Shown in pieces: positions 3,715-60,140 of a stretch of DNA of 64,000 nt (its first letter is position 1; the number at the start of each line of letters is the position of its first letter). The DNA is taken from positions 36,766,001 through 36,830,000 of the forward strand of contig NC_135805.1 in assembly GCF_964213995.1 (NCBI RefSeq). Reading direction: 5' to 3'. Source of the stretch: Mustelus asterias (taxonomy: Eukaryota). The notes beneath the pieces are model-generated. The model was given only the letters and a program-made list of their open reading frames with translations, was not told where the DNA came from and did not search any database. The position numbers and the translations under genes are program-made.

Positions 3715-4347
3715 GATTTTGGGGAGATTGGAGGCAGTGCCAGGGACAGTGCCAGGGTACCAGGGGTGATGCCAGGGAGCAGGGGGCAGTGCCAGATGGG
3801 CCCCTGGAGACCTTCTTTGCTCTCCTTATCAGTTTCACCTTTTCAATTTCACCTTATCAGTTTGGGGATTGATTTCCCCTTGTGCATGTAGAGGGTGTTC
3901 CCTGTGCTCATGTGGAGGGGTGGGGAGGAGTGGATGGGTGGGGGGGTGAGGGGGGGAGGGGTGGTGGGGTGGGTGGGTGGGGGAGATTGAATTCCCTGTG
4001 CCTGTAGTGGTGGGGTGGGGGGGGGAAGGGTGTTGCTTCCTGTGTTGTATAGCAGAGAGGACTTCCAGTCCCAGCATGATGGCGTGGGCCATGCCTCCGG
4101 ATTTATTTTGCACAGAGTACTGCATTATCCAAAAGAGAAAAACAGGCTGTGCAGCCTGGCTTTCTCACCTCATGATGTGGAGATGCCGGCGTTGGACTGG
4201 GGTGAACACAGTAAGAAGGCTCACAACACCAGGTTAAAGTCCAACAGGTTTATTTGGTAGCAAATACCATAAGCTTTCGGAGCGCTGCTCCTTCGTCAGA
4301 TCTCACCTCAGCCAGCACTTTGTGCGGAGAATGGAAAATTCTGTCCA
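3715..4347. mobile_element. Degraded GC-rich non-autonomous DNA transposon (Harbinger-like, related to 20466-21664)
   Basis: ggcagtgccaggg repeats and G-rich tract; TIR-like end gaaaattctgtcc. Confidence 0.45.
4173..4300 (-). mobile_element. Penelope-like family A, 128-bp 3' terminal insertion with hammerhead core
   Basis: Minus strand reads CTGACGA-A-GGAGC-AGC-GCTCC-GAAA-GCTT-ATGG then the family tail ..gccggcatctccacatca; TSD tctcacctca at 4163-4172 and 4301-4310. Confidence 0.85.
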
Positions 4348-4363
4348 TTGAGTCTATTTGATG

Positions 4364-4638
4364 CAAAAACAGAACATGCTAGAAAATCTCAGCAGGTCTG
4401 ACAGCACCTGTGGGGAGAGAACACAGCCAACGTTTCGCGTCTAGACGACCCTTCGTCAGAGCTGATAGAGCCAATGTTTCGAGTCTAGATGACCCTTCAT
4501 CAAAGCATTTCGAGAATTTAGCATGACCATGAAACATTGGTTCTATTCTCCCAGATGCTGTCAGGCCTGCTGGGATTTTCCAGCATTTTCTGTTTTTGTT
4601 TCAGATTCCAGCATTTGCAGTATTTTGCTTTTATCTTA
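4364..4638. mobile_element. Penelope-like family B insertion with inverted termini and two tandem hammerhead motifs
   Basis: 4364-4506 (-) and 4531-4638 (+) are inverted copies of the family B end; 14-bp TSD gagtct(a/g)tttgatg at 4350-4363 and 4639-4652. Confidence 0.85.
4425..4463 (-). ncRNA. Minimal type-I hammerhead ribozyme motif (PLE family B)
   Basis: AGCU-CUGACGA-A-GGGUC-GUCUA-GACGC-GAAA-CGUU-GGCU; intact core, palindromic stem III ACGU, one stem II mismatch. Confidence 0.75.
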
Positions 4639-5337
4639 GAGTCTGTTTGATGTCTGTGCTGGCTGTTTGTGAGAACCATCCAAACCAAATTCCACTGACC
4701 TGCACTCTGCTCAAACCTCTGAAACTCCCTCTGCCTCTGAATCTTTTTTATTTTTAAAAGATGCAATGCCCACAGCCTCAACCATGTCCTTTGACAAAGC
4801 AGTCCATGTTCCAACTCTTCCTAACCTCTCTCTGTGTTTTCATGCAGACAATTATAAGTTAATGACTGTGCCCCCCCCCTCCCTGCTGACCATTTTATTA
4901 CTGGCACCTCAATCAAAGGAAATTGCGTTTCTCTCTAGTCGATAAAACCTTTTATTCCTTTTACAATCTTTATTAGATCTCCTTATAGCCTGGTCTCAGT
5001 GTAAATAGGTCCTGTATCTCAAGCCGCTCCCCATTGCTATTGTCTCCCATGTCTGGCATTACCGTAATGAAACTGTGCTATCTTCTTTTCATGGTTTTAA
5101 TGTACAATCGAAAAGGAACAGGCAATTAGCACTGAAGCCAACGGCACTTTGACAATATCAACAAGCCCTGTGCAGTGATACAAAGCACAGTTTTTGTAAG
5201 AAATGATCGCACAGTGTCTCCAGCAAATTATATCACGGGAACTGGCACAGGTGCATCACCCTTAGCTGTGCAGATAGATAGGTATTTTGTAGCCTCTAAA
5301 GCTTGCCAATGGCTACAAGGTCTTCCAGCACTGCTAT

Positions 5338-5640
5338 CACGGTGGCACAATGGTTAGCACTGCTGCCTCTCAGTGTCAGGGACCCAGGTTTGATTCCCGG
5401 CTTGGGTCACTGTCTGTGTGAAGTTTGCACGTTCTCCCCATGTCTGTGTGGGTTTCCTCTGGGTGCTCCCGTTTCCTTTCACAGTCCATAAGATGTGCTG
5501 GTTAGGTGTATTGGTCATGCTAAATTCTCCCTCAGTGTACCCGAACCAGTGCTAGAGTATGGCGACTAGGGGATTTTCACAGTAACTTCATTGCAGTGTT
5601 AATGGTAGACTACTGGTGACACTAATGAACAAACTTTAAA
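5338..5640 (+). mobile_element. HE1-type V-SINE with alternative (type 2) tail
   Basis: tRNA head plus V-domain, then ctcagtgtacccgaac..ggattttcacagtaacttcattgcagtgttaat..gtgacactaat. Confidence 0.85.
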
Positions 5641-6584
5641 ACATTTAGAAGCATACATGGTCAGTGCATAGTAAATATTGACGCAATAATTGTAACCTCA
5701 GGATTCTGACGACCATCATCATTTGTTGCTGACCATTGGAATAAACGAGAGACACTGCACAAACAGTCTGGGTCCTGCTGCAACATATGGATTGCAATGG
5801 TTCAAGAAGGCAGCTCAACACCAAGGGTGTTTGGAGATGGGCAATGAATGCTGGCCAAGCTAATGACACTCACATCCCCTGAATGAGTAAAACAAATCCT
5901 TATTATTAACATTGATATAGCCTTGACAAACAAATATTCTCTTGCATTTTGAAGAGATCAAATGGTCAGAATTGTGATGGACAGGGGTGATCAGTTGTTG
6001 GAGTTCTGTACTCAGGCCTGCTTTCTCCCCAATGTTAATGAGGTTATGAATCTTGTCACCATGATTACCTGTATTATTTGAGATTTGGGCTATTTTCAGT
6101 TGCAGGCATCACTGCTTCTTTTTCACTCTTCTAACTTCTAGTTTTTGTTTGCCTTTGCTCAAATCTTGATTTGCGCTCCCATTATGTCAACGAGGAATTT
6201 TCCCTTTTTATCTGTTGTTTCTTTGGTCTTCGTGTTTGAGGGCAGTCTGTTAGATTCCAATGTTCCTGCCACCCATCGTCAATATCGATATCACTACACA
6301 GCAATGCAACTTTATTGCTTGTGAGACTGCAGATGGTATTCATCTCTTGTGTTCCATTCTTCAGTGACGAACAGAGGAATCAAAGGTTATTAGGCTGGGC
6401 GGAATATGGAGTTGAGGCCACAGTCAGATCAGCCGTGATCGTATTGAATGATGGAGCAGGGTTCGAGGTGCCTAATGATACTGTTCCTCATTCATATGTT
6501 CGTAATAGCCAAACATACCTCAACTGGAATGGATATCGCTCTCTCAATATGCTTCTGCTTTCAAACCAGCTGTATATTTTTCTA

Positions 6585-6988
6585 GATGTGGAGATGCCGG
6601 CGTTGGACTGGGATAAACACAGTAAGAGTTTTAACAACACCAGTTTAAAGTCCAACAGGTTTACTTGATAGCAAATGCCATTAGCTTTCGGAGCGCTGTT
6701 CTTTCATCAGATGGAGTGGAAATCTACTCTCAAACAGGGCACAGAGACACAAAATCAAGTTACAGAATACTGATTAGAATGCGAATCTCTACAACCAAAC
6801 AGGTCTGGTTGGCTGAAGAGATTCGCATTCTAATCAATATTCTGTAACTTGATTTTGTGTCTCTTGCCCTGTTTGAGAGCACATTTCCACTCCATCTGAT
6901 GAAGGAGCAGCGCTCTGAAAGCTAATGGCATTTGCTACCAAATAAACCTGGTTGGACTTTAACCTGGTGTTGTTAAAACTCTTACTGT
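6585..6988. mobile_element. Penelope-like family A fold-back insertion
   Basis: Arms 6619-6802 and 6805-6988 are reverse complements; tail present only at the left end; TSD tatttttct(a/g)gatg at 6575-6588 and 6988-7001. Confidence 0.9.
6892..6928 (+). ncRNA. Minimal type-I hammerhead ribozyme motif (PLE family A)
   Basis: CCAU-CUGAUGA-A-GGAGC-AGC-GCUCU-GAAA-GCUA-AUGG; stem I CCAU/AUGG, predicted cleavage after CUA at 6924; mirror copy on - strand at 6678-6714. Confidence 0.8.
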
Positions 6989-7600
6989 ATTTTTCTGGAT
7001 GCAGTGGTGTATTTTACTTGAATGGTCACTCAGAAAATATCCGTTCAAATCCCTCCATGGGTATTTATGAATTTGAATTCATAGAATCCCGACAGTGCAA
7101 AATGAGGCCATTCAGCCCATTGAGTGTGCACCGACTCTCCGGTAGAGCATCCTACCCAGGCCCACCACCGCCCCACCCCCCCCCCCCCCCACCCCCCCAT
7201 CCCCCCACCCCCGGCCTATCCCAGCTTAACCAGTCACTCAGCTGTATCTGACTGCATCAAGTAACCCCCAGACTGCAGCGTTTCAAGAAGACCCAGCCGT
7301 CTCAGAGCAAATAAGGGAAAGCCTTGATAGAGATGCCTGTCTCCCGAGAATTAATTTAAGAAGAAAAATCAGGAGCTGCCTCAAACACCTTTATTTTAAG
7401 ATAACATCCCGAACACCCCTAGCACCTAACGCAATTTTCCAAAGAAAGTCAAGCCCCAGAAGAATCTTAGGAAACCTTTGCAATTGTGCTTATTAGAGCT
7501 TCAACTGCACAGTACTACAAGAAAATGCATTCAATCAACAGGAGTCAATTAAGGGAAATAAAGGGGAATTCAGTCGATATCAAAGGGAGGAGCAATTGAA

Positions 7601-8038
7601 AGTTATCCATTGAGATCAGCGGGATCAGTTATCTATTGAGATCAGTGGGATCAATTATCTATTGGGATCAGTGGGGATCAGTTATCTATTGGGATCAGCA
7701 GGATCAGTTATCTATTGGGATCAGCGGGATCAGTTATCTATTGAGATCAGCGGGATCAGTTATCTATTGAGATCAGCGGGATCAGTTATCTATTGAGATC
7801 AGTGGGATCAATTATCTATTGGGATCAGCGGGGATCAGTTATCTATTGGGATCAGCAGGATCAGTTATCTATTGGGATCAGCGGGATCAGTTATCTATTG
7901 AGATCAGCGGGATCAGTTATCTATCGAGATCAGCGGGATCAGTTATCTATCGAGATCAGCGGGATCAGTTATCTATTGAGATCAGCGGGATCAGTTATCT
8001 ATCGAGATCAGCGGGATCAGTTATCTATTGAGATCAGT
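7601..8038. repeat. 26-bp minisatellite, ~17 copies
   Basis: Unit agttatctattgagatcagcgggatc; two 27-bp variants at 7653 and 7810. Confidence 0.97.
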
Positions 8039-8554
8039 TGCATCCTTTCTGTACCTGTGCTTTCCATTATTCTCACCTTCTTTCGTATAACCATCTTAAC
8101 AATTGGCACAAGTTTACATTCTCAGGGATAATTTACCTTATCTTCTTGCAGATACCAATGGATTTGCCTTGTTTTTGCTTTGGCTTTTGATTGCTAACAT
8201 TTGCAGTTTTAATACAATGCATTTTTTCCACTGGGTCTGATCATAGCTTAAATGTCCAAATATATTGTGTCCTATATCTTTTATGTCATGTCACTTTAAC
8301 GTAATAGCCATAAATGTAATGTGCTTCTGCACCAAAATAGCTTGCAGCTATCCTCGATATGTATTATAATTGTTATCTTTCCCACTTTGTGCCATCCTAA
8401 TTTCCCAGGTTTTGATATTTTGGCATCAAAAGTAGATGTTTCTTTGGTTATCATAATAAACTGCGACTGTCCTGTATTGATAGATGAAATATATTAACCC
8501 TGCGCTTTGCGCAGCATGGGGAAATCTTGCGTGTGTTTAAGGAACATTTCTTCT

Positions 8555-17588: not shown

Positions 17589-17589
17589 G

Positions 17590-20465: not shown

Positions 20466-21664
20466 GGGGGTGATTCTTCCAAAAATATTCTAAGTGCCGA
20501 ACTCACATGAGAACTGGAATATCTCCCGCTGATTTTTTTTTGGCGTGATTTTCAAAATGTATCCCACACTCTGAGCATTGCAGAGTGCCCCAGCGTGATT
20601 CACTCAGAAAGGTAGTGGGCGAGGCTTATTCCCACTGGAGAGGTCAGCATAGCACTGAGCGGGCCACTGCACATGCAGTGATATGTCAGAGCAGAGATCG
20701 GCGCATGCACACTGGCCCCGCACTGCCGACCTCCAGATAGCCAGCAATCGAGCTGGCTAACCCCACGACCTCGCAACGTTGCCTCTCCAATCCCCAACCA
20801 GAGATTGCTGGCCTCCCAGATCTCGATGTGGAAATGCCGGCGTTGGACTGGGGTAAACACAGTAAGGAGTCTAACAACACCAGGTTAAAGTCCAACAGGT
20901 TTATTTGGTAGCAAATGCCACTCGCTTTCGGAGCGCTGCTCCTTCGTCAGATGGAGTGGAAATCTGCTCTCAGATCTCTCCAGACCAGGCCCAATGTCCC
21001 CTCCCCCACCACCCCCCACCCAGTTCCGATCTCCCAGACCCACCTTTCCACCCAGATGGCCAGCCCTGATCACTCCCTTCCCTCCCTCTGCCATGGATCC
21101 CTATGCCAAGTGGCGGATCCCTCCACCCCCACTGATTGCATGCTATAGGCCCCACTTCCCACTAGGCCCTGCCTCCTCTGGCCCTTACCCCTTGGCACTG
21201 CCTGATGCCCAGTAGGCAGTACCAAGGTTCCCCTTGGTCATTGCCAGTTTGCCCCTTGGGCAGTGCCAAGGGGCCAGGCTAGCAATGCTCAGGGGGCACC
21301 CCTCCTGACTTCCTGGGGGGGCCCGATGGCCTCTGTTTTCTCCAGCATGGTGGGCCGCCCATTCCCCAGTAAGGAGAGCTGTTGTAAACCCCGCTGGAGG
21401 GAACCACTCCTGGAGGGAGGGGAGAGGCTAGCAGGCCCAGAGACTTCAGTCCCAGACCTGTTAATGAAATGGCAATGGCAGTTTAAATATTTAAATCAGC
21501 TCTGCACCGATTTGCAGCATGGAGCTGATTACTCCAAAATCTTGGAGCCGGAGACATGTGGAGGCAGTGGTGCCCAGCGGGGAACCTGCTAAATGGCTTC
21601 CACTGATGTCTCCAGGCCTGTTGCACTGCCAGAGCAGTGCAGTGGGCTGGGAGAATCGCCCCCC
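20466..21664. mobile_element. GC-rich non-autonomous DNA transposon (PIF/Harbinger-like)
   Basis: TIRs gggggtgattct / agaatcgccccc; colinear with 61726-62835. Confidence 0.75.
20825..20970 (-). mobile_element. Penelope-like family A terminal insertion with mutated hammerhead
   Basis: CCAU-CUGACGA-A-GGAGC..GCUCC-GAAAGCGA-GUGG (U16.1 changed to G); TSD cagatctc. Confidence 0.85.
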
Positions 21665-21677
21665 TTTACATCCATCT

Positions 21678-22183
21678 CTACATCCGTCCTGGCATGGCAG
21701 CAAGGACAGTAGGTGTATGGGGATCCACCACCTGCAAGTTCCCTTCCACAGTGCACCATCCTGACATGGGAGTGTGAAAGTATTCCCGCACTGTTGCTGG
21801 ATTGAAACCTGCGACAGCACCGGCCCCACACCACATGGACAGGGACAGCATGGTGGCACAGTGGTTAGCACTGCTGCCTCACAGCGCCAGGGACCTGGAT
21901 TCAATCCCCGCCTCGGGTCACTGTCTGTGTGGAGTTTGCACATTCTCCCCGTGGCTGCGTGGGTTTTCTCCGAGTACTCTGGTTTCCTCCCACAGTCCAA
22001 AGATGCGCAAGTTAGGTGAATTGGCCAGGCTCAATTGCCGCTTGTCCCAAGATGCGTACATTAGGGGGATCAGCGGGGTAAATTTGTGGGGTTGCAGGGA
22101 TAGGGTCTGGCTGGGGTGCTCTGTCAGGGAGTTGATGGGCCAAATAGCCTCCTTCTGCACTGGAGGGATTGTATGATTCTATG
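21678..22183 (+). mobile_element. Composite unit: LINE-derived leader plus HE1 SINE
   Basis: 21695-21850 aligns with 12100-12250; HE1 body at 21842-22183. Confidence 0.8.
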
Positions 22184-24085: not shown

Positions 24086-24087
24086 TA

Positions 24088-26309: not shown

Positions 26310-27208
26310 GACACCAAGATTGGTGGAGTAGTGGATGAGGTGGAGGGCTGTTGTAGACTGCAAAGAGACATAGATAGGATGCAAAGCTGGGCTGAAAAAT
26401 GGTAGATGGAGGTTAACACTGATAAATGTGAGGTGATTCATTTTGATAGGACTAATTTAAATGTGGATTGCAGGGTCAAAGGTAGGGTTCTGAAGACTGC
26501 GGAGGAACAGAGAGATCTTGGGGTCCATATCCACAGATCTCTGAAGGTTGCCACTCAAGTGGATAGAGCTGTGAAGAAGGCCTATAGTGTGTTAGCTTTT
26601 ATTACAGGGGGTTGGAGTTTAAGAGCCGTGGGGTTATGCTGCAACTGTACAGGACCTTGGTGAGACCACATTTGGAATATTGTGTGCAGTTCTGGTCACC
26701 TCACTATAAGAAGGATGTGGAAGCGCTGGAAAGAGTGCAAAGGAGATTTACCAGGATGCTGCCTGGTTTGGAGGATAGGTCTTATGAGGAAAGGTTGAGG
26801 GAGCTAGGGCTGTTCTCTCTGGAGTGGAGGAGGTTGAGGGGGGACTTAATGGAGGTTTATAAAATGATGACGGGGATAGATAGAGTGAACGTTCAAAGAC
26901 TATTTCCTCAGATGGATGGAGCTATTTCAAGGGGGCATAACTATAGGGTTCGTGGTGGGAGATATAGGAAGGATATCAGAGGTAGGTTCTTTACTCAGAG
27001 AGTGGTTGAAGTGTGGAATGGACTGCCTGCAGCGATAGTGGAGTCAGACACTTTAGGAACATTTAAGTGGTTATTGGATAGGCACATGGAGCACACCAGG
27101 ATGATAGGGAGGGGGATAGCTTGATCTTGGTTTCAGATAAAGCTCGGCACAACATCGTGGGCCGAAGGGCCTGTTCTGTGCTGTACTGTTCTATGTTCTA
27201 TGTTCTAT
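26310..27208 (+). mobile_element. Young CR1 LINE 3' fragment
   Basis: ORF 26612..27124 LYRTLVRPHLEYCVQFW..FFTQRVVEVWNGLP; (tgttcta)n tail. Confidence 0.92.
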
Positions 27209-29690
27209 ATGTCCTATTTAAAAAGGAAAATTGTAAGTAAAGTGAGTGTTGGTCCCTTACAGAATGAGAATTGGGAATTAATAAAGGAAATAGCTGAAGC
27301 ATTGAACAGATATTTTTGTGCCTGTCTTCTCTGTGGAAGACACAAAATCATATCAAGAATGCTTGAAAATCAAGAGATAAGATAAAGTGAGGAACTCGAA
27401 ACAATCACAGTTGGAAGGGAAAAGTGAGAAAACTATTCGACCCCTGGACCTAATGGCTTTCATCCTAAAGTCTTAAAATAAGTGGCTGTGGAGATATAGA
27501 TGCATTGTTTGTGATTTTTCAAAATTCTCTAGAATGTAGAAAGGCCCCAATGAATTGAAAAATCGCTAATGCAACAATTTTGTTCAAGAAAGAAGGGAGA
27601 CGGAAAGGAGTAAACTATAGGCCAACTAGCCTAATGTCTGTCTGATGCGCATCAATTTGACACGAGGCACAAAGCTTTGGTAAAAGAAGGCTTTTATTAA
27701 CTAACAATGGAACTATCAGAACTTTAACACACTATCCCAGACTGAAGGGGTCCCGCCCGAGCAGGGAGTCTTATACCTCTCCCAGGAGGCGGAGCCCAAC
27801 TGGGATGTGCCACAACAGTTACAACCACAGGTGTATCAATCCCACCCTAGCCCAACAACAACATTAGAACAACCCAACAACAACATTAGAACAATCCCAC
27901 AGTGGGAACCAACGATGGTTCACCACACTGTCATAGGAAAAATAAACTAGAATCCATTATTCAGGAGGTAATAGCAGGATGTTTAGAAAATCACAATATA
28001 ATTAGACAGAGTGAACATGGTTGTAAGAGCGGGAAACCATGTTTGATACATTAATTCGAGTTACTCAAATTTATTGACTTTTTGTGACTTTAAAGGGGGG
28101 TCTTGACAAATACATGAATAGGATGGGAATAGAGGGATACGGTCCCCGGAAGGGGAGGGGGTTTTGGTTAAGTCAGGCAGCATGGTTGGTGCAGGCTTGG
28201 AGGGCTGAAGGGCCTGTTTCTATGTAATTTTCTTTGATCTTTATTGAGGCATATTTGGATTTCCTAAAGGCAATTGATCAGGGGCCACCTCAAAGGTTAC
28301 TATACAAAATAAGAACTCATAATGTAGGGGATAACATATTAACTCAAACAGAGCATTGGTTAGCTGAAAGGAAGCAGAGTGCAGGGATATATTAGTAATT
28401 TTTGGGTTGGCAACCTTTTCCTAGTAGAGTGCCACAGGGGCTCTGACTATTTACAAATCTATTCTATATCAATGACTTGGATGAAGGGATCAAATGAATT
28501 GGAACTAAATTTGCTGAAGGTACAAAGATAGGTGGGAAAGTAAATCTACAAGAGATATAAAGAATCCACAAAGGGGTATTGATAGGTTAGGTTAGTGGGC
28601 AAAATGTTGGCAGATGGGGAAAATGTGAACTTGTGAATTTGCTAAATGTGGGGAAATGTGAATTTGTCCACTCTAGATAGAAAAATAGAAAAGCAGTACA
28701 TTATTTGAATGGAGTGAGTCTGCAAAACTGTATGGTACAGAGGGATCTGGGTGTCCCAGTACATGAATCACAAAAAGCTGGTATGCAAGTGCAGCAGGTG
28801 ATTAGGAAGGCAAATGGATGGTAAGCATTTTTTGCAAGGGGGATTGAGTCTGAAAGTAGGGAAGCTCTAATCAATAGTTGGAGAATGAGATACACTCAGT
28901 GGACTTCTACGCTACCCACCTGGTCCTCCTCATAACCTGCCTGGTCCTCCTTGACTGCCTTATTGCAGAGTCTTCACCACCCTCCACCCCCCCCCCCCCC
29001 ACCCCCCCCCCCCCCAACCCTCCCGACCCCGGCACCCGACCACCTCCGCCACCGAACAGCTCTACAGGGCCTTGGACCTCATCTGGAATATTGTGTCCAG
29101 TTTGGTTTCCTTCCTTTGAGAAGTGATATAAATGCATTAGATACAGTTCAGAGAAGGTTCCCTCAACTGAATCCTTGCATGAAAGGCTTATCTTATGAGA
29201 AGAGGTTGAGCAGTTTGGGATAATGCCCATTTGACTTCAGAAGAGGTGCTCTTTTTGAAACATACAAGATTCTGAGGGGACTTGACGGTAGAAGCTGGAT
29301 GGATGTTTCCACTTTTGAGGGAGTCTAAATCTAAGGGATAAAGTTTAGAAATGAGAAGTCATCTATTTAAGACTAAAATAGAGGATTTTATTTATCTCCC
29401 AGGGAGATGATGGTCTGCAGGATTCTTTTCCCCAAAGTTCAGCGCAGCCTGGGTCATTGAATATACTGAAAGCTGAGTTAGACAGATTATTGATCAACAA
29501 GGGATTTGGGGGTTCTGACGGTGGTGGGGGGAGGCGGAATGGGGTGGGTCAGTGAATGGAGGGGGGAGCGGCTGCAGACAGGAAAGTGGTGTTGATCAAA
29601 ATCAGATCAGCCATGATCTTCTCGAATGATGGAGTAGACTCGATTGGATGGATGCCTGTTCCTTCTTCCATTTTTGTGTTCCTGTGTTTG
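27209..29690 (+). mobile_element. Old CR1 ORF2 remnant hosting several insertions (starts about 26130)
   Basis: PGPNGFHPKVLK, NYRPTSLMS, EHG, YLDF.KA, YINDLD, KFAEGTK. Confidence 0.8.
27643..27927 (-). mobile_element. Solo LTR, 285 bp
   Basis: TG..CA termini; 5-bp TSD ctgtc at 27638-27642 and 27928-27932; TATA-like and AATAAA motifs. Confidence 0.92.
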
Positions 29691-30113: not shown

Positions 30114-31842
30114 AAGATGCACCTTGTAGTGTAATCTAATCTAAGCTCTAATCAAAAGTTGGAAAATGAAATACACTCAGTGGACTTCTATGCTACTTGC
30201 CTGGACCTCCTTGACTGCCTGATTGCGGGGTGACCCCCCACCCCACTCAACCGCGGTTGACCCTCCCCTCCTTCCTTCCTTCCTTCCTACCCATTCATTG
30301 TCTTAAACTCATCCCCTTTGCTCCCACACCACTGCCGCTCTCCCGAATCTACCCAAACTCTCTCCCAGCCCAAGACCGTGGACATGCCTGCTTTGGGGAT
30401 CGAGGGCACTGGGGTCCTCTCTTCACCAGCACTCCCAACATCATCCACTGAATCCCCTTGTGTTGTTAGGACTGATGGAACTGCTGGTGAGTCAGATCGG
30501 CAGGCAGCTCCAGAGGGTGGGACATCACCCCACTGAGTGGCAGAGGGCCTATTTGGCTCTTACTGATCAGCCCCACAGCACTTTATGGCTCTGGAGAGGG
30601 TCAGCAGGGAGTGTGTCAGCTCCATGCCAATGTGGTTTCGGGGGTGTGGGGGAGTGGCATACCACCTGCTTCCTGCCATGTTATTCAACCCCCTGTATAC
30701 ATATGCAAGGAATAGAGGGATATGGATCAAGGGCAGGTAGGAGGGATTAGTTTAATTTGGCGTCATGTTCAGCACAATATAGAACATAGAGCTTACTGCA
30801 TTCTGAAGCAGAATGCACACTCCATGGGACTGAGATTTCCTGCCATACCTCCATTTATTAGAGTATTAGCTGACTTAATAGAAATAAACTCAAGATGAAA
30901 TAAATAACAGGTACACAACAGTCAGCTGCTTCCCTTGTACTGACATTGCATTATTTTGTAAGAAGTTAACTTAAATATTTTTACTTAACTCTTATTATCC
31001 ATACAGCATAGATTCAAATTTACTGAAAAATTCAGAAACCTTTGCAATTTAATTTTAAATTTAGCACCTAGATCTGATTAATTAATTGAACATTGATTGT
31101 AATTATATGATAAAATATCAAATTTGATTTAGGTCTTGTGCTAATTAATTGGCCTGGTCTTTCTTCATAGTTGATTCAATTAAATTAAATTAAAAGTTTG
31201 TCAGTATACTCAACCCATGGGACTCTGTTTTGTGACATCACTTTATTAGATTTATCCTCCCTGTCCAATCACAGTGCGTCTCCACTCTGCTCCCGAATTC
31301 TCCTGTTACGTTGTTCCGTTCTGCTCCCAATCTCTCCTTTCAAATGCTCCACACTACTCCCGTCCTTTTCTTTTCCATGCTTCCACTCTGTTCCTGGCTT
31401 CTTCTTTTACACTGCTTCACTCTCAACCTCTCTTTTCAGACCTTTCTTTTCTTGGCCTCTCAATTTTATGCTGATCTGCTCCACATTCAACAGCTCCATT
31501 TATGCTGCTCTGCTTCACTCTGCTCCCAGCCTTTCCGTTTTATCCACCTTAACTTCATTCCTCTCCAGGCCGCTCTCTTTATGCTTCTGCAATCCATAAA
31601 TGTAGCGCTCGTGCACACTCTGCACCTTTGTTCTGCTATTTACTCAATCCGATTTCCTTACGAGCTGCTATTAGCACCATTCTCAGTCTTTACTATATTC
31701 CCTTTGTCTTTTTGTCTATTGCATCTTGGTCAATTACATCACCCAGCCCCCTCCCCCACCCTTATAAATCTCGTCCTACTTTCTTTGTCTTCAGCTCTGA
31801 CGAAGGGTAATCCAGACTCGAACTGTTGGCTCTATTCTTTCT

Positions 31843-32586
31843 CAGTAAGAAGTTTAACAACACCAGGTTAAAGTCCAACAGGTTTATTTGGTAGCAAAAG
31901 CCACACAAGCTTTCGGAGCTCCAAGCCCCTTCTTCAGGTGAGTGGAAATTCTGTTCACAAACAGGGCATATAAAGACACAAACTCAATTTACATGAATAA
32001 TGGTTGGAATGCAAATACTTACAACTAATCAAGTCTTTAAGAAACAAAACAACGTGAGTGGAGAGAGCATCAAGACAGGCTAAAAAGATGTGTATTGTCT
32101 CCAGACAAGACAGCCAGTGAAACTCTGCAGGTCTAGGCAACTGTGGGGGTTACAAATAGTGTGACATGAACCCAATATCCCGGTTGAGGCCGTCCTCGTG
32201 TGTGCGGAACATGGCTATCAGTTTCTGCTCAGCGACTCTGCGCCGTCGTGTGTCGCAAAGGCCGCCTTGGAGAACGCTTACCCGAATATCAGAGGCCGAA
32301 TGCCCGTGACCGCTGAAGTGCTCCCCAACAGGAAGAGAACAGTCTTGCCTGGTGATTGTCGAGCGGTGTTCATTCATCCATTGTCGTAGCGTCTGCATGG
32401 TTTCCCCAATGTATCATGCCTTGGGACATCCTTTCCTGCAGCGTATCAGGTAGACAACGTTGGCCAAGTTGCAAGAGTATGTACCGTGTACCTGGTGGAT
32501 GGTGTTCTCACGTGAGATGATGGCATCTGTGTCGATGATCCGGCATGTCTGTTTACCCCAGTCCAACGCCGGCATCTCCACATCAT
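31843..32586 (-). mobile_element. Penelope-like family A element: GIY-YIG endonuclease remnant, 3' UTR with hammerhead, inverted tail
   Basis: Minus frame 32150-32549: YSCNLANVVYLIRCRKGCPKA*YIGETMQTLRQWMNEH..PVGEHF..AEQKLI..GLN; TSD-like tctattct(t/c)tctc. Confidence 0.9.
31902..31942 (-). ncRNA. Minimal hammerhead ribozyme motif, intact core
   Basis: CAC-CUGAAGA-A-GGGGC-UUGGA-GCUCC-GAAA-GCUU-GUG. Confidence 0.8.
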
Positions 32587-32673
32587 GTCTATTCTCTCTC
32601 CACAGATGCTGTCAGACCTGCTGAGATTTTCCAGCAGTTTCCGTTTTTATTTCCAATTCCAGCATCTGCAGTA

Positions 32674-33015
32674 TCATAGAATCATAGAAACCCTACAGTG
32701 CAGAAGGAGGCCATTTGGCCCATCGAGCCTGCACCGACCACAACCCCACCCAGGCCCTACCCCCACATATTTTTACCCACTAATCCCTCTAACCTACGCA
32801 TCTCAGGACTCTAAGGGGCAATTTTTAACCTGGCCAATCAACCTAACCCGCACATCTTTGGACTGTGGGAGGAAACCGGAGCACCCGGAGGAAATCCACG
32901 CAGACACGAGGAGAATGTGCAAACTCCACACAGACAGTGACCCGAGCCGGGAATCGAACCCAGGACCATGGAGCTGTGAAGCAGCAGTGCTAACCACTGT
33001 GCTACCATGCCGCCC
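32674..33015 (-). mobile_element. Young HE1 V-SINE
   Basis: Full head to tail; cagta TSD; very similar to 23420-23775. Confidence 0.92.
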
Positions 33016-39249: not shown

Positions 39250-39321
39250 AGGGGGCACTTGGATTTGAGCCAGCGACCTCTTGATCTGCAGTCAAATGCT
39301 CTACCACTGTGCTATAACCCC
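39250..39321 (-). pseudogene. tRNA-Cys(GCA) pseudogene
   Basis: GGGGTTATAGCACAGTGGTAGAGCATTTGACTGCAGATCAAGAGGTCGCTGGCTCAAATCCAAGTGCCCCCT, 72 nt; intact anticodon arm, mismatches in acceptor, D and T stems, B-box GTTC changed to GCTC. Confidence 0.88.
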
Positions 39322-40775: not shown

Positions 40776-41292
40776 GGACGAATGTGACAGGCAGGTGGGG
40801 GTAGATTTTTGTTATCACCATTTTTAATTGCAATGGCATGAAATTCAGATGTATTCTCTGAGCACCAGCTTACTGCCCAGAAGGTGTAAATGAAAACTGA
40901 ATGGAGATGTGTCGATTGGAAGATTGAATTAGATCACATACATACAATGTGGAAATGGAATTAATTACATCTGCAGCTGAATTGTATTTACTTTGATTTA
41001 ATTAGTTCCGCGATGAGCTGTGCCTCCCATTTTAACATTTCATTAGCATCATTTATCTTTTCACTGGCATCTTTATGGAAGGCAAGGCAGAAGATTTTAA
41101 AAATGTATGCAGCCACCAGCTAATCGTCAGTATTTTTCACCTTGTGTGTTAGGTAGTGTTGTGCGATTAACACATGAACAACTGCAAAAAGATCAATGCT
41201 TACTTATATCCATTCTTATTTGGCTTCCATATTTAGATGAGTGTCTTGCCATTGATTCCAGTGGACTAAAGCAAAGAAAGATCTTGCATTTA

Positions 41293-42355
41293 TATCTACT
41301 CTACATCGGAGAGACCAAACACAGACTGGGTGATCGCTTTGCTGAACATCTTCGATCTGTCCGCAAGCAGGACCCAGGCCTTCCTGTCGCTTGCCACTTC
41401 ACCACACCACCCTGCTCTCCTGTCCACATGTCCATCCTTTGCCTTTTGCAATGTTCTAGCGAACCCCAATGCAAACTAGAGGAACAGCATCTCATCTTCC
41501 GATTGGGCACTTTACAGCCTTCCAGACTGAACCTTGAGTTCAACAACTTTAGAGGGTGTGGTGAACCATCGTTGGTTCCCACTGTGGGATTGTTCTAATG
41601 TTGTTGTTGGGTTGTTCTAATGTTGTTGTTGGGCTAGGGTGGGATTGATACACCTGTGGTTGTAACTGTTGTGGCACATCCCAGTTGGGCTCCGCCTCCT
41701 GGGAGAGGTATAAGACCCCCTGCTCGGGCGGGACCCCTTCAGTCTGGGATAGTGTGTTAAAGTTCTGATAGTTCCATTGTTAGTTAATAAAAGCCTTCTT
41801 TTACCGAAGCTTTGTGCCTCGTGTCCAATTGATGCGCATCAGAGGGTGAACTCTCCCCTCCACCTCCACCCCATTCCCAATTATTTTATTTTATTTCATC
41901 TCATTCATCCATTTTATCATCTTTCTTTTTCACTTCTATTTTCTGACTTCTCCATTCCAGCTCTGCTTCTTTCCACATCCCCCCCTGCCCCCCTCCATCC
42001 CCCCCCTCCGCCCCCCCCCCCCCCCAAACACCCTTCATTGCAACCGCCATATTCCTCTGGCAGTTCTTTACCAGTCTACCTCTGTGCTGCCATTCTTGCA
42101 CATTCTGATCACTTAATGGACCCTCTTAACACCTTCTCAGCCTTCTGTATTCTCATTTATATTACCTTTGTCCAATTCCATCCCCCCCCCCCCCCCCCCC
42201 CACCCCCCCTCCACCCCAGTAGTATAAATCTCTGCTGATTCTCATGCTCTTAGTTCTGGCGAAGGGTCATCTGGACTCAAAACTTTGGCTCTACTCTCTC
42301 CCCACAGATGCTGTCAGACCTGCTGAGATTTTCCAATATTTTCTGTTTTTGTTGT
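41293..42355 (+). mobile_element. Penelope-like family B element: GIY-YIG C-terminus, 3' UTR, degenerate hammerhead; interrupted by an LTR
   Basis: LYIGETKHRLGDRFAEH..PVACHF..KLEEQHLIFRLGTLQPSRLNLEF; ctggcgaagggtcatctggactcaaaact at about 42256; TSD atttatatc. Confidence 0.9.
41557..41841 (+). mobile_element. Solo LTR, 285 bp
   Basis: TG..CA; TSD gaggg at 41552-41556 and 41842-41846; near-identical to 27643-27927. Confidence 0.93.
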
Positions 42356-42674: not shown

Positions 42675-42776
42675 GTTAGCTCTGACAAAGGGTTATCTGG
42701 ACTCGAAACGTCAACTCTTTTCTCTCCTTACAGGCGCTGCCAGACCTGCTGAGATTTTCCAGCGTTTTCTCTTTTG
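42675..42776 (+). mobile_element. Penelope-like family B terminal insertion with mutated hammerhead
   Basis: agctCTGACAAagggttatctggactcGAAAcgtc (G8 changed to A); TSD ggtattt. Confidence 0.8.
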
Positions 42777-42926
42777 GTATTTTTCACCTTGGGTGTTCGG
42801 TTGTGTTGTGTGATTAACACATGAACAACTGCAAAAAGGTCGAGCTGTCCACAGCATACCCTCTAATTCCATCTTTTTCTCTCATTCTATGCTCTTAAAA
42901 CTTAATTCTAACTTCTTCAAACTGTC

Positions 42927-45912: not shown

Positions 45913-46831
45913 CTAATCAGCAAGTTTGCGGATGACACGAAGATGGCTGGACTTGTGGATAGCGAAGAACATTGTCGGACAATACAGCAGGATATGGATA
46001 GGCTGGAAAATTGGACGGAGAAATGGCAGATGGAATTTAATCCAGATAAATGCGAAGTGATGCATTTTGGAAGAACTAATGTAGGGGGGAGTTATACAAT
46101 AAATGGCAGAGCCATCAAGAGTATAGAAACACAGAGGGACCTAGCTGTGTAAGTCCACAAATCCTTGAAGGTGGCAGTACAGGTGGAGAAGGTGGTGAAG
46201 AAGGCATCTGGTATGCTTGCCTTTATAGGACGGGGTATAGAGTATAAAAGCTGGAGTCTGATGTTGCAGCTGTATAGAACGCTGGTTAGGCCACATTTGG
46301 AGTACTGCATCCAGTTCTGTTCGCCGCACTACCAGAAGGATATGGAGGCTTTAGAGAGAGTGCAGAGAAGGTTTACCAGGATGTTGCCTGGTATGGAGGA
46401 TCTTAGCTATGAGGAGAGATTGGGTAAACTGGGCTTGTTCTCCCTGGAAAGACGGAGAATGAGGGGAGACCTAATAGAGGTGTACAAAATTATGAAGGGT
46501 ATAGATAGGGTGAACAGTGGGAAGCTTTTTCCCAGGTCGGAGGTGATGATCACGAGGGGTCACGGGCTCAAGGTGAGAGGGGCGAGGTATAACTCAGATA
46601 TCAGAGGGACGTTTTTTACACAGAGAGTGGTGGGAGCCTGGAATGCGCTGCCAAGTAGGGTGGTGGAGGCAGACACGCTGGCATCGTTTAAGACTTACCT
46701 GGATAGTCACATGAGCAGTCTGGGAATGGAGGGATACAAACGAATGGTCTCGTTGGACCAATGAGCGGCACAGGCTTGGAGGGCCGAAGGGCCTGTTTCC
46801 TGTGCTGTACTGTTCTTTGTTCTTTGTTCTT
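45913..46831 (+). mobile_element. Young CR1 LINE 3' fragment
   Basis: KFADDTK; ORF 46165..46764 of 199 aa; (tgttctt)n tail. Confidence 0.93.
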
Positions 46832-46840
46832 TGACACTCC

Positions 46841-46952
46841 AACCTGTTGGACTTTAACCTGGTGTTGATAGACTTCTTACTGTGTTTATCCCAGTCCAAC
46901 GCCACTTCTTACTGTGTTTACCCCAGTCCAACGCCGGCATCTCCACATCATG
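46841..46952 (+). mobile_element. Penelope-like family A tail fragment with 32-bp tandem duplication
   Basis: acttcttactgtgttta.cccagtccaacgcc occurs twice. Confidence 0.8.
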
Positions 46953-47643
46953 ATTCCATTATTGTACCAAGGGAGTGCTGCACTGCCAGAGTCTTCTGGA
47001 TATGATGATTAAATTTAAGCTAATTCCTTCTATTCTGGTAGCTGATGAGGGTGAAAAAGCTTTCTTGATGCTATTCAAGGAAAAACACAGGATGCTTGCC
47101 AATATTCATCTCTTAACAAACTGCAATAAAACAATTAAGTGCTCATTCACCTCACTGCTGCTTGCATCCTCTTTGCCGTGCCCAAAATAACTGCTTTCTA
47201 CCCAACAATCAATGCCCTTCAAAGTAGTTAATTGTTTGCAAAACACTTCGGGACATCCTGCGGGTTGTAAGGAGATGCGATGTGAACGTGAGCTTTTTGT
47301 GTGTCTGAGTGTGTCACATTTACTTCAGGTAACAAGCACTTTGTTGATTGGGCAGAATAGAATTTGACTTATTCAGTTGCAGTAAATCATGACCTCTGTA
47401 ACCTGCTCGAGAGATCAGTGACTGAGACCCTTTCTGTTAAACAGTGTGTGACACCCATATTGCTACAAAACAGTGCATCAATTACTTGAAACGTTAACCC
47501 TTCTTTATTCTCTCCACAGATAATGCCTAACCTGGTGAGTTTTTGCAGCATTTTCTGTTTTTGTTATACACCAAATATTCCTGGAGAACTGCTATTTTAT
47601 AAGAAATGCATTAAAATAGCAGATAACAGAATTTCATACATTA

Positions 47644-47771: not shown

Positions 47772-48419
47772 GAACATTTGTCTGTTATTTTTACAATGCA
47801 TTATTTAATGTAGTGGTATTTGGACAAATGTCATTTAAGGTTACATAGAGACAACATAAACCATTCGACAATAAAACAAAGCAGTGGATGCAGGAAATCT
47901 TAAATACAAAATTTCTGGAAATATTCAGAAAGTCTGTCAGCATCTGTGGAGGGAAAAACAGTTAGCCTTTCAGGTCAACAAACTTTCTTCGAACCATTCT
48001 ATTTTTATCAACAATAGTGCATTGGCCATGCTAAATTCTCCCTCAGTGTACCCGAACAGGCGCAGGAGTTTGACGACTCAAGGATTTTCACAGTAACTTC
48101 ATTGCAGTGTTAATGTAAGCCTACTTGTGACACTAATAAATAAACTTCAAACTTAATTGAATAAATCAATCACGTTAGTCAAATGTAAAATTTAACAAAG
48201 AATTCCTGCAGTGCAGAAGGATGTGATTCGGCCCATCGAGTCTGTACCGACTCTCTGGCAGAGTACCTTACTCAGGTCCTCTCCCCCACCCTATTTTCAC
48301 AGTGACTTCATTGCAGTGTTAATGTAAGCCTACTTGTGACTAATGAATAAACTTTAATGTTATCCTGTAACCCCTCGCATTTACAATGGCCAATCCATCT
48401 AACCTACACATCTTTGGAG

Positions 48420-52228: not shown

Positions 52229-52259
52229 CTTTGAGGACACTGGTTTGAATCCCACCATG

Positions 52260-55290: not shown

Positions 55291-55420
55291 CACGATCTTG
55301 ACTAGGAAATAAATCACCGTCCCTTAATCATTGATGGATCGTAATCTTAGAACTCCCTCCCAAAATCACCGTGGATGTAACTACACCAATTAGATTGCAT
55401 TGGTTCAAGAAGGCTCACAA

Positions 55421-55926
55421 AAAACAAAGAACAAAGAATTGTACAGTACAGGAACAGGCTCTTTGGCCCTCCAAGGCTGCACCGATCATGATGCCTACCT
55501 AAACAAAAACCGTATGCACTTACGGAGTCTATATTCTTTCATTCCAATCCTCTTCATGTATATGTCTAGATGCCCCTTAAATGCTGCTATCGTACCTGCT
55601 CCCACCACCTCCCTGGGCAGCGCGTTCCAGACATTCACCACCCTCTGTGTAAAAAACTTGCCTTGCACATTTTCTCTAAACTTTTCCCCATGCCTGTTAA
55701 ACTTATGTCCCCTAATACTTGACTCCTAGGAAAGAACATCTAACTATCCACTCTGTCCATAATCTTGTAAACCTCTATCAGGTCACCCCTCTACCTTCAT
55801 CGTTCCAGTGAGAACAAACTGAGTTTATCCAACCTCTCCTCATAGCTAATACCCTCCAGACCAGGCAACATCCTGGTAAATCTCTTCTATCCCCTCTCCT
55901 AAGCATCCACATCCTTCTGGTAGAGT

Positions 55927-55958
<32 letters not shown>

Positions 55959-56205
55959 AGGCCTAACTAAGGTTCTGTACAGTTGCAGCATGACCTGCCA
56001 ATGTTTATACTCAAAGCCCCGACCGATGGAGGCAAGCATGCTATATGCCTTTTTGACTACCTTATCCACCTGCATTGTCATTTTCAGTGATTGGTAGATG
56101 TGTATGGCCAGATCCCTCTGCCTGTCAATACTCCTAAGGGTTCTACCATTTACTGTATAATTCCTACATGCATGGGACCTTCCAAAATGCATTACCTCAC
56201 ATTTG
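55421..56205 (-). mobile_element. CR1 LINE 3' fragment
   Basis: KCEVMHFG..LYRTLVRPHLEYCVQFW. Confidence 0.9.
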
Positions 56206-57697
56206 CAAGTGCTATCAGGATTGGGAAATAAAAATCTTTGCTTCACCAGTGACCTCCAAAACCCATGTATGAACAAAAAATAGTAAAGGAAAGGATGATT
56301 GCCATCAATAGAACTATCCCTCATCAGCTCTGCAATTCTCACCATGAAACCAGGCACCCCCTCCTCACTCTGAGACCTACATTTGTAGTCATTGGCTCGT
56401 CCTGCTTAAATTTAGTGGGGCTGAAAGTTTGAGACAGAGCTTTTAGCTGTTACATTGATGCTTCCTAAATCAAAATCCCAGTGCCTTAAAATATTTGATA
56501 AAGATTGAACTATAAATGCGGCCCAGAACGCTCTGTGATATTCACTTAAGTGGTCTGCTAACACAAAATCCTTATGCTAAGGATCACAATGTCCATTGTA
56601 AATGGATGGCTTTCTGCATCTGTGCTCATCAGTTTGCAATTATCTGTCCACTTACTTCAGTGCACTGATAATCACGGACTGCATGTGCTGAACCTCAGTC
56701 GAAATCTCCGCACTGTGGTTCCATCTGTCTCATGGCCATCTATTGCAATGTTATACGGGTCTCATTTTATGCCTCATTTGTGCAGACTTGGACAACTTGG
56801 TCTGCATTGGGAATTCATTTAGAATTTGCTCATTTGGAAATGAATTCTTTAAGTCAGTTTCAAGAAGTCCCCCTTCACTTTCTCGACCGAGTTACAGTTC
56901 TATGTACAATATATAGTGATACCATTTCTTGCTCCATTACACTTCGAGCGAATTGGTTTTTGCAACATGACAATGAACAGCCTGAAGTAATGGCATTGTC
57001 ACATGGCCTACCATGCATGCTCTCCTGCCTTGCAGCAGCGTACGAGTCAGAACACCAAAAGTACTTAACTCCTGGAAGCGGCTTGGCTTGTGCAGGCGGT
57101 GAGATGAAACCTTCTTTAAACATCATGCTGGAGCGCAGAGGTTTTAATATTATATTTACAATGCTATTGCATGCCTCTCCCTCTGCTTTGACAGTGTGTA
57201 AAGAATGAAACATAGCCAAAGTCTGTTTTAGAGCGTTGTTAAAGATGTCACACTGCACACTGACATGGTGAGAAGTAAGTAAAGGCATTCTATGCAAATC
57301 ATAAATCATCTCGACAGGGCAACAGCAAAGAACACCACAGGCAGTTTTAAAAGAAACATAAATATTCATTGAAGAAACTAATGTTATTTGGCTTCATAAT
57401 TCAAAAAAAAATATTTACAGGGATTGCCATCCAGGCAGGTAATTGGAGATGCTCCTTGAAGCTATAGTTAACCGTAGTTGTATTTTGTTCAACATCATTA
57501 TAAGGCTCAGTGACAGTAGCTACAGATGGATAACTGTTTAAGATGGGCTGGGATCCTTTGTAGAATATTGTCTTTGGATAATAAAATACAATTGGGTTGT
57601 TTTCTTGTATAAATTCATCTTGTTACCTTAAACAACAGTGTATGCACATGCAGGTAATTGTAGCAATGCAAATAGCAGGGCTTTATTGAGACACGAT

Positions 57698-57868
57698 CCA
57701 AAGATATGCGGGTTAGGTTGATTGGCCATGATATATTGCCCCGTGGTGTCAGGAGGATTAGAAGGATAAATATGTGGGGTTAGGTGAATAGGGCCGGGGT
57801 GGGATTGTGGTCAGTGCAGACTCAATGGACCAAATGGCCTCATTCTGTACCATAGGGATCCTTTGGAT
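57698..57868 (+). mobile_element. 5'-truncated HE1 SINE
   Basis: tccaaagat..ggttaggttgattggccatg through the HER1 tail. Confidence 0.8.
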
Positions 57869-58114
57869 TTCCATTTGTACCCCACTATCCAGTGATTCAC
57901 TCAGACGTGTAGACCACTTTTACCTGTGTTCACCACATAGCATGCATACCATCAATAAATTCTAATGCAGCTAAGATACGTACAGTAATAGCAGAACAAC
58001 AGACATGGACCCTGCAAAAATGCACTCATGCTCAATCATTTCCAATTATCTTGTTGCAATGGTTATTTTGCCATACAAACTTAATTTCATTTCCCATAAA
58101 CATAAGATGGGGTA

Positions 58115-58456
58115 TGGCCGAGTGGTATTATCGCTAGACTGTTAATCCAGAAACTCAGTTAATGTTCTGGGGGCCTGGGTTCAAATCCCATCACAGCAGC
58201 TGGTGGAATTTGAATTCAATAAAAATATTTGGAATTAAGAATCTACTGAAGACTATGGTCATCGTCATAAAAACCCATCTGGTTCACTAATGTCTTTCAG
58301 GGAAAGAAATTTATTATCCTTACCAGTCTGGCCTACATGTAACTCCAGAGCCACAGCAATGTGTTTGATTCTGAACTGCCCTTAAGCAACTAGGGATGGG
58401 AAATAAATACTAGCCAGCCGGCGACGCCCATGTCCCATGAATGAATAAACAAAAAC
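58115..58456 (+). mobile_element. SINE S2, full length
   Basis: Same structure as 29754-30113. Confidence 0.85.
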
Positions 58457-58798
58457 ATCCTTCCTAAAGTGCGACGCTAAGAATTTGAAGATTTTTAACA
58501 TGGATGATAATCACTGACAAAGGATGGTTCTGTCAATATGTAAAGTCACATTCTGTCCAAAACTGAAATCCACAAAACATACTCTTAAATTCTGAACGCA
58601 CTTCTACTTTTCACATAGTATAAAAGCATCAAGCATGCTCAGGTAAGACACAACAGGGGCTAAGTGTAATTGAAAGCTGCCTCTGGACCATTGAGTGCTG
58701 ATAGTAGGAAGCACATTCACCCGTGGGTTAGAATGTTGTGTATAAAACTCACAGTGAGACTTGAGTACATAATTTTGTCAAGTTCAGTACAGAGAGAG

Positions 58799-59767
58799 TA
58801 GAAACATAGAAACATAGAAAAACTACAGCACAAAACAGGCCATTCGGCCCCACAAGTTGTGCCGAACATATCCCTACCTTTTAGGCCTACCTATAACCCT
58901 CCATCCTATTAAGTCCCATGTACTCATCCAGGAGTCTCTTAAAAGACCCTATTGAGTTTGCTTCCACCACCACTGACAGCAGCCGATTCCAATCGCCCAC
59001 CACCCTCTGTGTGAAAAAACTTCCCCCTAACATTTCCCCTGTACCTACCCCCCAGCACCTTAAACCTGTGTCCTCTCGTAGCAGCCATTTCCACCCTGGG
59101 AAAAAGCCTCTGAGAGTCCACCCGATCTATGCCTCTCAACATCTTATATACCTCTATTAGGTCTCCTCTCATCCTACATCTCTCCAAGGAGAAAAGACCG
59201 AGCTCCCTCATTCTATCCTCAATCCAGGCAACATCCTTGTAAATCTCCTCTGCACCCTTTCAATCTTTTCCACATCCTTCCTGTAATGAGGCGATCAGAA
59301 CTGAGCACAGTACCCCAAGTGGAGTCTGACGAGGGTCTTATATAGCTGCATCATTATCCCCGGACTCCTAAACTCAATCCCTCGATTGATAAAGGCCAGC
59401 ACACCATACGCCTTCTTAACCACCTCCTCCACCTGCGGAACCAATTTTAGAGTCCTATGGACCCAGACCCCAAGGTCCTTCTGATCCTCTACAGGACTAA
59501 GAGTCTTTCCCTTTATATTGTACTCCTTCATCCCATTTGACCTACCAAAATGGACCACTACGCATTTATCTGGGTTGAAGTCCATCTGCCACTTCTCTGC
59601 CCAGTCTTGCATCCTATCTATGTCCCTCTGTAACTTCTGACATTCCTCCAGACTATCCACAACCCCACTAACCTTTGTGTCATCGGCAAATTTACCAACC
59701 CATCCCTCCACTTCCTCATCTAGGTCATTTATGAAAATGACAAACAGCAAGGGTCCCAGAACAGAAC
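58799..59767 (-). mobile_element. Young CR1 LINE 3' fragment
   Basis: LFVIFINDLD..KFADDTK; 3' end near-identical to 49566-49761; agagtagaa at both flanks. Confidence 0.92.
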
Positions 59768-59909
59768 AGAGTAGAAGATATCAAACAAGACATGACAACG
59801 GATTCCTGCTCCACTGATTCGTGAGTGTTTTAAGACCAGGGTGAAATTTTGCTATTGGGAAAATATTCCTCCTTCAACTAACATCACCAAAGCCAATAAT
59901 CACGGGTTC

Positions 59910-60140
59910 ATAAAAGCAAAATACTGCGGATGCTGGAATCTGAAACAAAAACAGAAAATGCTGGAAATTCTCAGCAGGTCAGACAGCATCTGTGGGGAGA
60001 GAATAGAGCCAATGTTTCGAGTCTGGATGACCCTTTGTCAGAGCTGAGAGCAAAGAGAATCAGCAGAGATTTATACTATGAGGATGAGGGGAGAGGTGGA
60101 ATGGAACAAAAGGAATGTAAATGAGGATACGGAAGGCTGA
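59910..60140 (-). mobile_element. Penelope-like family B 3' end with mutated hammerhead
   Basis: Minus strand: agctCTGACAAagggtcatccagactcGAAAcattggct plus family tail. Confidence 0.82.

Follow-up and report, generated by a model that had tools for sequence, protein, structure and literature searches.

Two families with minimal hammerheads

A stretch of 64,000 nucleotides from the genome of Mustelus asterias (contig NC_135805.1, positions 36,766,001 to 36,830,000; the window) was analyzed, across which minimal hammerhead ribozymes are dispersed together with remnants of two families of Penelope-like elements (PLEs), named A and B. An earlier note, made from the sequence alone, had listed 11 hammerhead motifs, and all of them were found where it had placed them (Table 1). 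Positions within the elements are counted from the core base C3 (= 0); the cut site lies downstream of the type-I core, at +29 in subfamily A1 and at +31 in A2 and B. The 11 motifs correspond to nine insertions, i.e., the motifs at 6710 and 6896 form one inverted pair and those at 4459 and 4503 belong to one event. Three further fragments in the window lack the core.

All core bases are kept in five of the 11 motifs, and one is lost in the other six (20950, 4503, 31797, 42256, 42682 and 60041); three more motifs have a clipped stem I or a mismatched stem II. A strict descriptor matched two motifs of the window (6896 and 31937) and none in 50 dinucleotide shuffles. With the same descriptor 49 matches were obtained in 1.4 Mb of random genomic DNA (140 stretches of 10 kb), and none in each of five shuffles. 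A scan with Rfam gave no hammerhead family match on the window motifs. The minimal type-I form (a CUGANGA/GAAA/UH core, stems I and II and a palindromic stem III) fits the subfamilies, with 92.6% of the cells paired. The earlier note had stressed that stem II varies and stays paired. The change from GGAGC to GGGGC against GCUCC is a one-sided exchange of A-U for G-U. The covariation that the note had asked for was found between subfamilies, where two-sided changes occurred in four of nine stem pairs (11 cells; 0 of 500 shuffles; 24 hand-picked sequences). Cofolding with ViennaRNA yielded a dimer with swapped stems II and not the active form, and it was uninformative about the predicted self-cleavage of dimers.

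The endonuclease remnants of the window were searched against the 3.68 Gb genome, and 40 loci were retrieved. Family A was found in tandem, with a unit of 3021 bp and the order pseudo-long terminal repeat (pLTR), open reading frame (ORF), pLTR. The ORF of family A (locus L011) encodes a reverse transcriptase (RT; PF00078, E=1.7e-9), a CX4CX2C linker and then a GIY-YIG domain, and the endonuclease motif is read through in locus L026. In family B the GIY-YIG domain was detected under the curated cut-off (PF01541, E=3.6e-4), and pieces of the RT were found at L034 and L038. The domain order is the same as in A; the proteins of the two families are 28% identical over 288 amino acids, and there was no intact ORF among 20 B loci. 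The remnant at 32150-32549(-) is 93% identical over 45 amino acids to the full A ORF. That at 41293-41552 shares 86% identity with a B ORF and is joined to the motif at 42256 across a solo long terminal repeat (LTR) that was inserted later. The claim that each family is tied to its own GIY-YIG remnant was thus confirmed, as was the assignment to PLEs with type-I hammerheads, which is borne out by RT, GIY-YIG and pLTR structure.

Family A combines an RT with a GIY-YIG domain at the C-terminus in one ORF, and pseudo-LTRs, inverted copies and a tail are present, as in endonuclease-bearing PLEs. The linker motif CX2-5CxxC, described as a mark of the clades Neptune and Nematis (PMC8557442), is present in both families. 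Together with the reported vertebrate distribution, this motif would place them with Neptune rather than Nematis. That the motifs are the minimal hammerheads of two Neptune-type PLE families is, in our judgement, close to certain. The link of hammerheads to PLEs, the tail and the inverted architecture are already published. The minimal hammerheads reported for pLTRs of PLEs in metazoans (Neptune and Poseidon of fish among them) share with those described here the type-I form, the absence of a real helix III with a palindromic 15.2-16.2, the extra base between 9 and 10.1, the G10.1-C11.1 pair and the short helix I. They, too, are mostly single dispersed motifs, with pairs on opposite strands 100-700 bp apart (PMC4209133).

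Two observations concern the reading frames. An in-frame TGA in the GIY-YIG motif (region 32414-32416 of the window) occurs in the window copy and in seven of 26 best-hit copies, L011 and other loci hit with the endonuclease among them. It was ruled out as a family trait or as recoding, because 38 of 38 unbiased copies have TGG; the TGA-bearing copies are read as a small endonuclease-dead sublineage that was copied in trans. Furthermore, a frame in B copies (e.g., 32588-32674) starts at an ATG at +50 and continues across their tail. The B ORF may thus start inside the pLTR, unlike that of A, in which the first ATG is at the tail end, at about +131 and outside the ribozyme.

Exact intact motifs in the genome numbered 29,763 for A1, 16,789 for A2 and 1,068 for B, i.e., at least 47,620, while reversed controls gave none. 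Extrapolation of the descriptor matches led to about 129,000 motifs (95,000-170,000), compared to 4,000 in coelacanth and 9,000 in Xenopus reported with another descriptor (PMC4209133). The random sample contained 135 A arms and 78 B arms, corresponding to about 355,000 A and 205,000 B arms if they are uniformly distributed. The young family is very abundant, and its copies are 97-99% identical.

Inverted pairs and a symmetric target site

Among 86 family A insertions in the random sample, 48 were head-to-head pairs. Exactly one tail was present in 44 of these pairs, none in three and two in one; similarly, seven of nine B pairs had one tail. The 3' ends of both families are bimodal, about 36 nt apart, which corresponds to the known tail. 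The 5' ends of the two arms of A pairs correlated (rho 0.84). A target duplication of at least 7 bp, with a mode of 12-13 bp, flanked 48 of 56 candidate pairings, compared to 5.5% of shuffled pairings, and therefore the pairs were regarded as single insertion events.

The empty target site could be rebuilt in 44 cases. The duplication was preceded by CTG on the left in 26 and followed by CAG on the right in 25 of them, the swapped arrangement was seen in two and two cases, and the background was 0.12. The spacer between CTG and CAG was 16 nt in 12 of 19 rebuilt sites, and perfect CTG-N16-CAG sites surround two copies of the window (4174 and 20824). In tail-bearing solo copies a CAG was found 11-18 nt past the tail in 13 of 22 cases (background 0.16), or in 11 of 18 after removal of four solos that overlap with the set of rebuilt sites. 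One-tail pairs, duplications of 12-13 bp and a symmetric target are together the footprint expected of a dimeric endonuclease that nicks both strands. We consider it likely that both nicks prime reverse transcription (twin priming).

Alternatively, the inverted pairs could arise by fold-back self-priming, which has been proposed to occur on an antisense template (PMC3846280). The 5' ends of the two arms are nearly equal (within 14 nt in 21 of 48 pairs) and the junctions are often at short palindromes, as would be expected of a fold-back. However, fold-back alone would leave unexplained the single tail in 44 of 48 pairs, the symmetric target and the fixed duplication of 12-13 bp, and in six of 48 pairs the arms differ by 149-429 nt. 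It is thus a rather improbable origin of the pairs compared to priming from two nicks.

A second hot spot of insertion is suggested by three of 20 B copies (L281, L283, L285; ~337-340 in element orientation), which break at +31..+33; the breaks run into a similar-looking unrelated repeat. Insertions of A into B at nearly the same spot just behind the B cut site were seen three times (window 31843, and L201 and L217 at about +45), and the B sequence at this spot nearly matches the A target.

5' ends and promoter signals

For the analysis of 5' ends a forward-only reference panel was used, and two A arms and four B arms at the edges of stretches were dropped. The panel replaced a first all-against-all estimate, which was inflated by inverted partners. 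In family A the 5' ends accumulated at +5..-24 with about 2.0 ends per 100 nt (42 of 90 arms at risk), compared to 0.50 on the downstream side (+60..+6) and 0.1-0.3 beyond the peak on the upstream side. When each insertion was represented by a single arm, the peak was 3.9-fold over the downstream and 9.9-fold over the upstream region. The peak of family B was higher, i.e., 8.2 ends per 100 nt at +5..-14 (30 of 34 arms) versus 1.1. No excess was seen in the bin of the cut site, neither for A (six ends, p=0.81) nor for B (six ends, p=0.60). Solos with a tail and solos without one had the peak at the same position (small numbers). Of B copies with an intact core, 21 of 30 ended at 0..-14, and genome-wide the motif at -13..-10 was kept in 507 of 2725 B copies that reach -4, uncorrected for mutation. 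A2 copies had a modest excess at 0..-14 (5 of 30, p=0.01). The truncation points, for which the earlier note had proposed a test, are therefore not random and cluster just upstream of the ribozyme. Its view of short insertions that stop at this place was right in that many copies are short and the 5' ends non-random, but the ends are heterogeneous and do not define a fixed unit. As the ends pile up upstream of the core and there is no excess at the cut site, the template was presumably uncleaved RNA, and the copies are not units cut by the ribozyme.

Signals upstream of the ribozyme offer an explanation of the pile-up. Of 26 long B rows, 22 contain TATAAA (at -34 in 13 of them), from which an RNA start near -4 is predicted. 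In contigs from three other runs (24, 9 and 28 contigs; all RNA data were assembled contigs of runs presumed to be RNA), the loose B end with the best support was likewise -4. A TATA-like motif at -35 is present in 43 of 45 A2 copies and four of four old A copies, but in only three of 32 A1 copies. The ends of A1 lie further upstream and are more spread, with a median of -17 compared to -9 and -6 (p=1.4e-4, although the arms do not represent independent events). Based on the placement of the TATA box and the shifted A1 ends, the pile-up was read as run-off of reverse transcription at an RNA start about 30 nt behind the TATA box of the pLTR, for and against which we see the case as evenly poised. 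Before -4 an excess of G was observed (293 G versus 110 A), which is compatible with copying of a cap. A putative TATA box and initiator have also been described in the pLTR of rotifer elements (PMC3846280).

The main rival to run-off is a stop of the RT that is caused by structure or bound protein and involves no RNA start: the cDNA could fold after the GC-rich stem II, or a protein on the ribozyme could block the enzyme. In agreement with such a stop, the peak lies 5-40 nt past stem II in both families, the rate rises already inside the core (2.1 per 100 nt at +15..+6 of B), and A1, which lacks the TATA box, still has a broad excess at -15..-44 (1.55 per 100 nt). In addition, the ribozyme of PAc, an Anolis Poseidon element, is reported to be protein-dependent (PMC11167929). 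But A1 has the same fold, and yet its ends are shifted and spread relative to the TATA-bearing subfamilies; furthermore, a block would be expected at the 3' foot of the fold, but the ends are not in excess there (+21 to +35). We thus regard an RT stop as unlikely, though less so than fold-back for the inverted pairs.

Splicing was considered as well. In family B the boundary could be a 3' splice site, with a branch-like motif, a pyrimidine tract and an AG that ends at -3, and the short copies could stem from spliced RNA. The motif is seen in long B copies, and in D. virilis an intron is reported to end at helix I (PMC4209133), but the short B copies have no common upstream exon, no GT..AG joint was present among the 15 joints listed (19 more are not shown), and older subfamilies of A do not conserve the corresponding AG. 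This origin of the B boundary is hardly credible. An intron in A (GT at -85, AG at -13) was also rejected; its signals are not conserved across subfamilies, and no GT..AG joint was found among 15 listed of 49.

Several points weigh against run-off and the scheme built on it. Young A arms have a weak peak (+5..-14, 1.06 versus 0.54, p=0.08), and 30 intact A1 copies have none at 0..-14 (p=0.78) and extend beyond -1500; many young copies continue upstream for hundreds of bases. The arms of several pairs meet in a palindrome at -14, i.e., upstream of the predicted start, and the RNA start itself was predicted from the sequence. The bins were set after inspection of the data, two older B subfamilies are without a long reference, and no more than four B arms in the random sample extend past -15. 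The rebuilt target sites are not all independent, as a few of them fall within repeats that they have in common. The excess of G is not specific for a cap; among 20 loci inspected, the G was in the target duplication at one, and target microhomology accounts for a duplicated pair. Lastly, Penelope of D. virilis is reported to start in the pLTR from a TATA-less internal promoter (PMC2377424).

Twin priming and run-off would combine into the following scheme. A dimeric endonuclease of the element would nick a CTG-N16-CAG site on both strands, and reverse transcription on uncleaved RNA would be primed from either nick, from one of them at the tail end (+128/+132) and from the other at the end that lacks the tail (+92/+96). 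Both cDNAs would then be joined head to head, often via short palindromes, or one of them would be lost, resulting in a solo copy. With an RNA start just before it, the ribozyme would form the extreme 5' terminus of the mRNA, and longer copies would come from read-through RNA. In source elements the ribozyme is under selection and would trim or decap the RNA, while inserted copies decay neutrally. On the whole we find it probable that the copies are 5'-truncated insertions of two Neptune-type families made by twin nicking and priming on uncleaved RNA. The full reaction is put forward tentatively and with some doubt: the nicks would be 2 nt 5' of the CAG on each strand, the 12-nt 3' overhangs would prime at both tail ends on the 5' pLTR of the mRNA, and the resulting strong-stop-like cDNAs would run off at the TATA-defined start. 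In that reaction the hammerhead would be a 5'-terminal self-decapping switch, and the several hundred thousand short copies would be integrated run-off products.

Insertions in the window and the fate of their ribozymes

The insertions of the window are compiled in Table 1. The pair at 6581-6992 is predicted to fold into a single hairpin (-292 kcal/mol).

Table 1. Copies of families A and B and an interrupting solo LTR in the window (C3, position of the core base).
Feature	Coordinates	Strand	C3	Details
Family A (A1) solo	4174..4301	-	4299	tail; 5' end -2; core intact, stem I clipped; 10-bp duplication within perfect CTG-N16-CAG site
Family B single event	4361..4639	.		three parts; 14-bp duplication with one mismatch
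Minus arm of 4361..4639	4361-4468	-	4459	core intact; no tail
Partial tandem motif of 4361..4639	4465-4506	-	~4503	core broken
Inverted plus arm of 4361..4639	4530-4639	+		tail; starts at +22
Family A head-to-head pair	6581..6991	.		5' ends -96/-91; 9-bp duplication
Minus arm of 6581..6991	6581-6806	-	6710	tail
Plus arm of 6581..6991	6805-6991	+	6896	no tail
Family A (A1) solo	20824..20972	-	20950	tail; 5' end -22; U16.1 changed; 8-bp duplication within perfect CTG-N16-CAG site
Family B copy	31669..32674	+	31797	core broken; split by A insertion into ~31669-31842 and 32588-32674
Family A (A2) copy	31843..32591	-	31937	GIY-YIG remnant, 3' UTR, intact hammerhead; no tail
GIY-YIG remnant of 31843..32591	32150-32550	-		one in-frame stop
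Inverted tail alone of 31843..32591	32550-32591	+
Family B copy	41290..42353	+	42256	GIY-YIG remnant 41293-41552, 3' UTR, TATAAA at -33, broken hammerhead; no tail
Solo LTR interrupting 41290..42353	41556-41843	+
Family B short copy	42676..42778	+	42682	5' end -4 to -6; G8 changed; no tail
Family A fragment without ribozyme	46841..46953	+		absent from the earlier note; starts at +49; 32-nt tandem duplication; tail
Old family B fragment without core	47484..47567	+		starts at +14
Old family B fragment without core	47884..47971	-		starts at +24
Family B copy	59909..60160	-	60041	tail; 5' end -119; TATAAA at -34; G8 changed

The solo LTR breaks the family B element just past its ORF. It is one of two solo-LTR-like copies of 288 bp, the other being at 27641-27928(-); both are 99% identical and have TG..CA ends and a 5-bp duplication each. 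The window also contains a 26-bp minisatellite (7601-8037, 16.7 copies, 93% matches) and a tRNA-like sequence at 39250-39321(-) with anticodon GCA and mismatches (Rfam RF00005, 43.3 bits), which is probably a pseudogene. SINE-like and LINE-like RT fragments are dense, e.g., at 2885-3091, 21842-22034, 559-932, 26588-27124 and 46153-46764. The SINE motifs appear to be of a shark-like type. Five candidate ORFs of the window were compared with Pfam for a host gene and gave no match.

The earlier note had proposed that the short copies may be ribozyme-bounded mini-retroelements through which self-cleavage sites come to lie in host transcripts. The pile-up at the ribozyme edge is real, at least 47,620 exact intact motifs exist, element sequence is present in contigs of the presumed RNA runs, and retrozymes derived from PLEs have been described (bioRxiv 10.64898/2026.07.22.740005). 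Nevertheless, the ends have no excess at the cut site and are heterogeneous, and tandem arrays do not exceed chance; a partner on the same strand within 5 kb was found for eight of 49 strict motifs. The core of inserted copies decays like its flanks (divergence 0.012 versus 0.013 in A1, n=36; 0.049 versus 0.056 in B1, n=9), and this neutral decay leaves a role in host transcripts unsupported. For 26 of the 49 strict motifs an inverted partner faces the motif, and the long duplex formed with it would bury the ribozyme. Insertions with a median of 128 bp are also reported (PMC9977147) for PLEs of Chlamys, which fall in a group said to lack canonical hammerheads. Propagation as mini-retroelements is thus very improbable, and the idea was not upheld. 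Copies that end near C3 lack the upstream TATA box and are thus predicted to be dead ends. Dimers in trans may form among the tens of thousands of intact copies.

The non-LTR retrozymes likewise have a type-I hammerhead, originate from PLE pLTRs and occur in a cartilaginous fish. However, they are tandem repeats with a ribozyme per unit, whereas the copies described here are solo or inverted and have variable 5' ends (bioRxiv 10.64898/2026.07.22.740005). A tandem array of units that each carry a complete hammerhead was not present in the window.

A close parallel is PAc, which is predicted to form a dimer. Its RT is reported to start at two internal sites that coincide with the tail and to use mainly uncleaved RNA as template in vitro, and the two DNA strands are reported to be both nicked and extended. 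Families A and B resemble it in two RT starts that bound a tail of 30-40 nt, in the nicking of both strands, which is deduced here from the insertions, and in the uncleaved template. In contrast, PAc belongs to another clade without the Cys linker, prefers ATT for cutting in vitro and not CTG-N16-CAG, and has its first ATG inside the ribozyme, unlike family A (PMC11167929). With the canonical PLE architecture, partial tandems, an inverted 5'-truncated copy, an optional tail at one end, duplications of 8-10 bp and a putative TATA box and initiator in the pLTR are shared (PMC8557442, PMC3846280, PMC2377424). Beyond it are the quantification on 86 random A insertions, the symmetric target motif and the peak of 5' ends; the latter two were not found in the literature searched on PLEs, supplements being outside this search.

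Taken together, mass counts of genomic hammerheads would mostly represent dead retrotransposon copies. The data give a testable account of the inverted copy of PLEs with its tail at one end as well as of the role of the ribozyme, and a young, abundant family supplies a defined target motif, an overhang length and a predicted RNA start.

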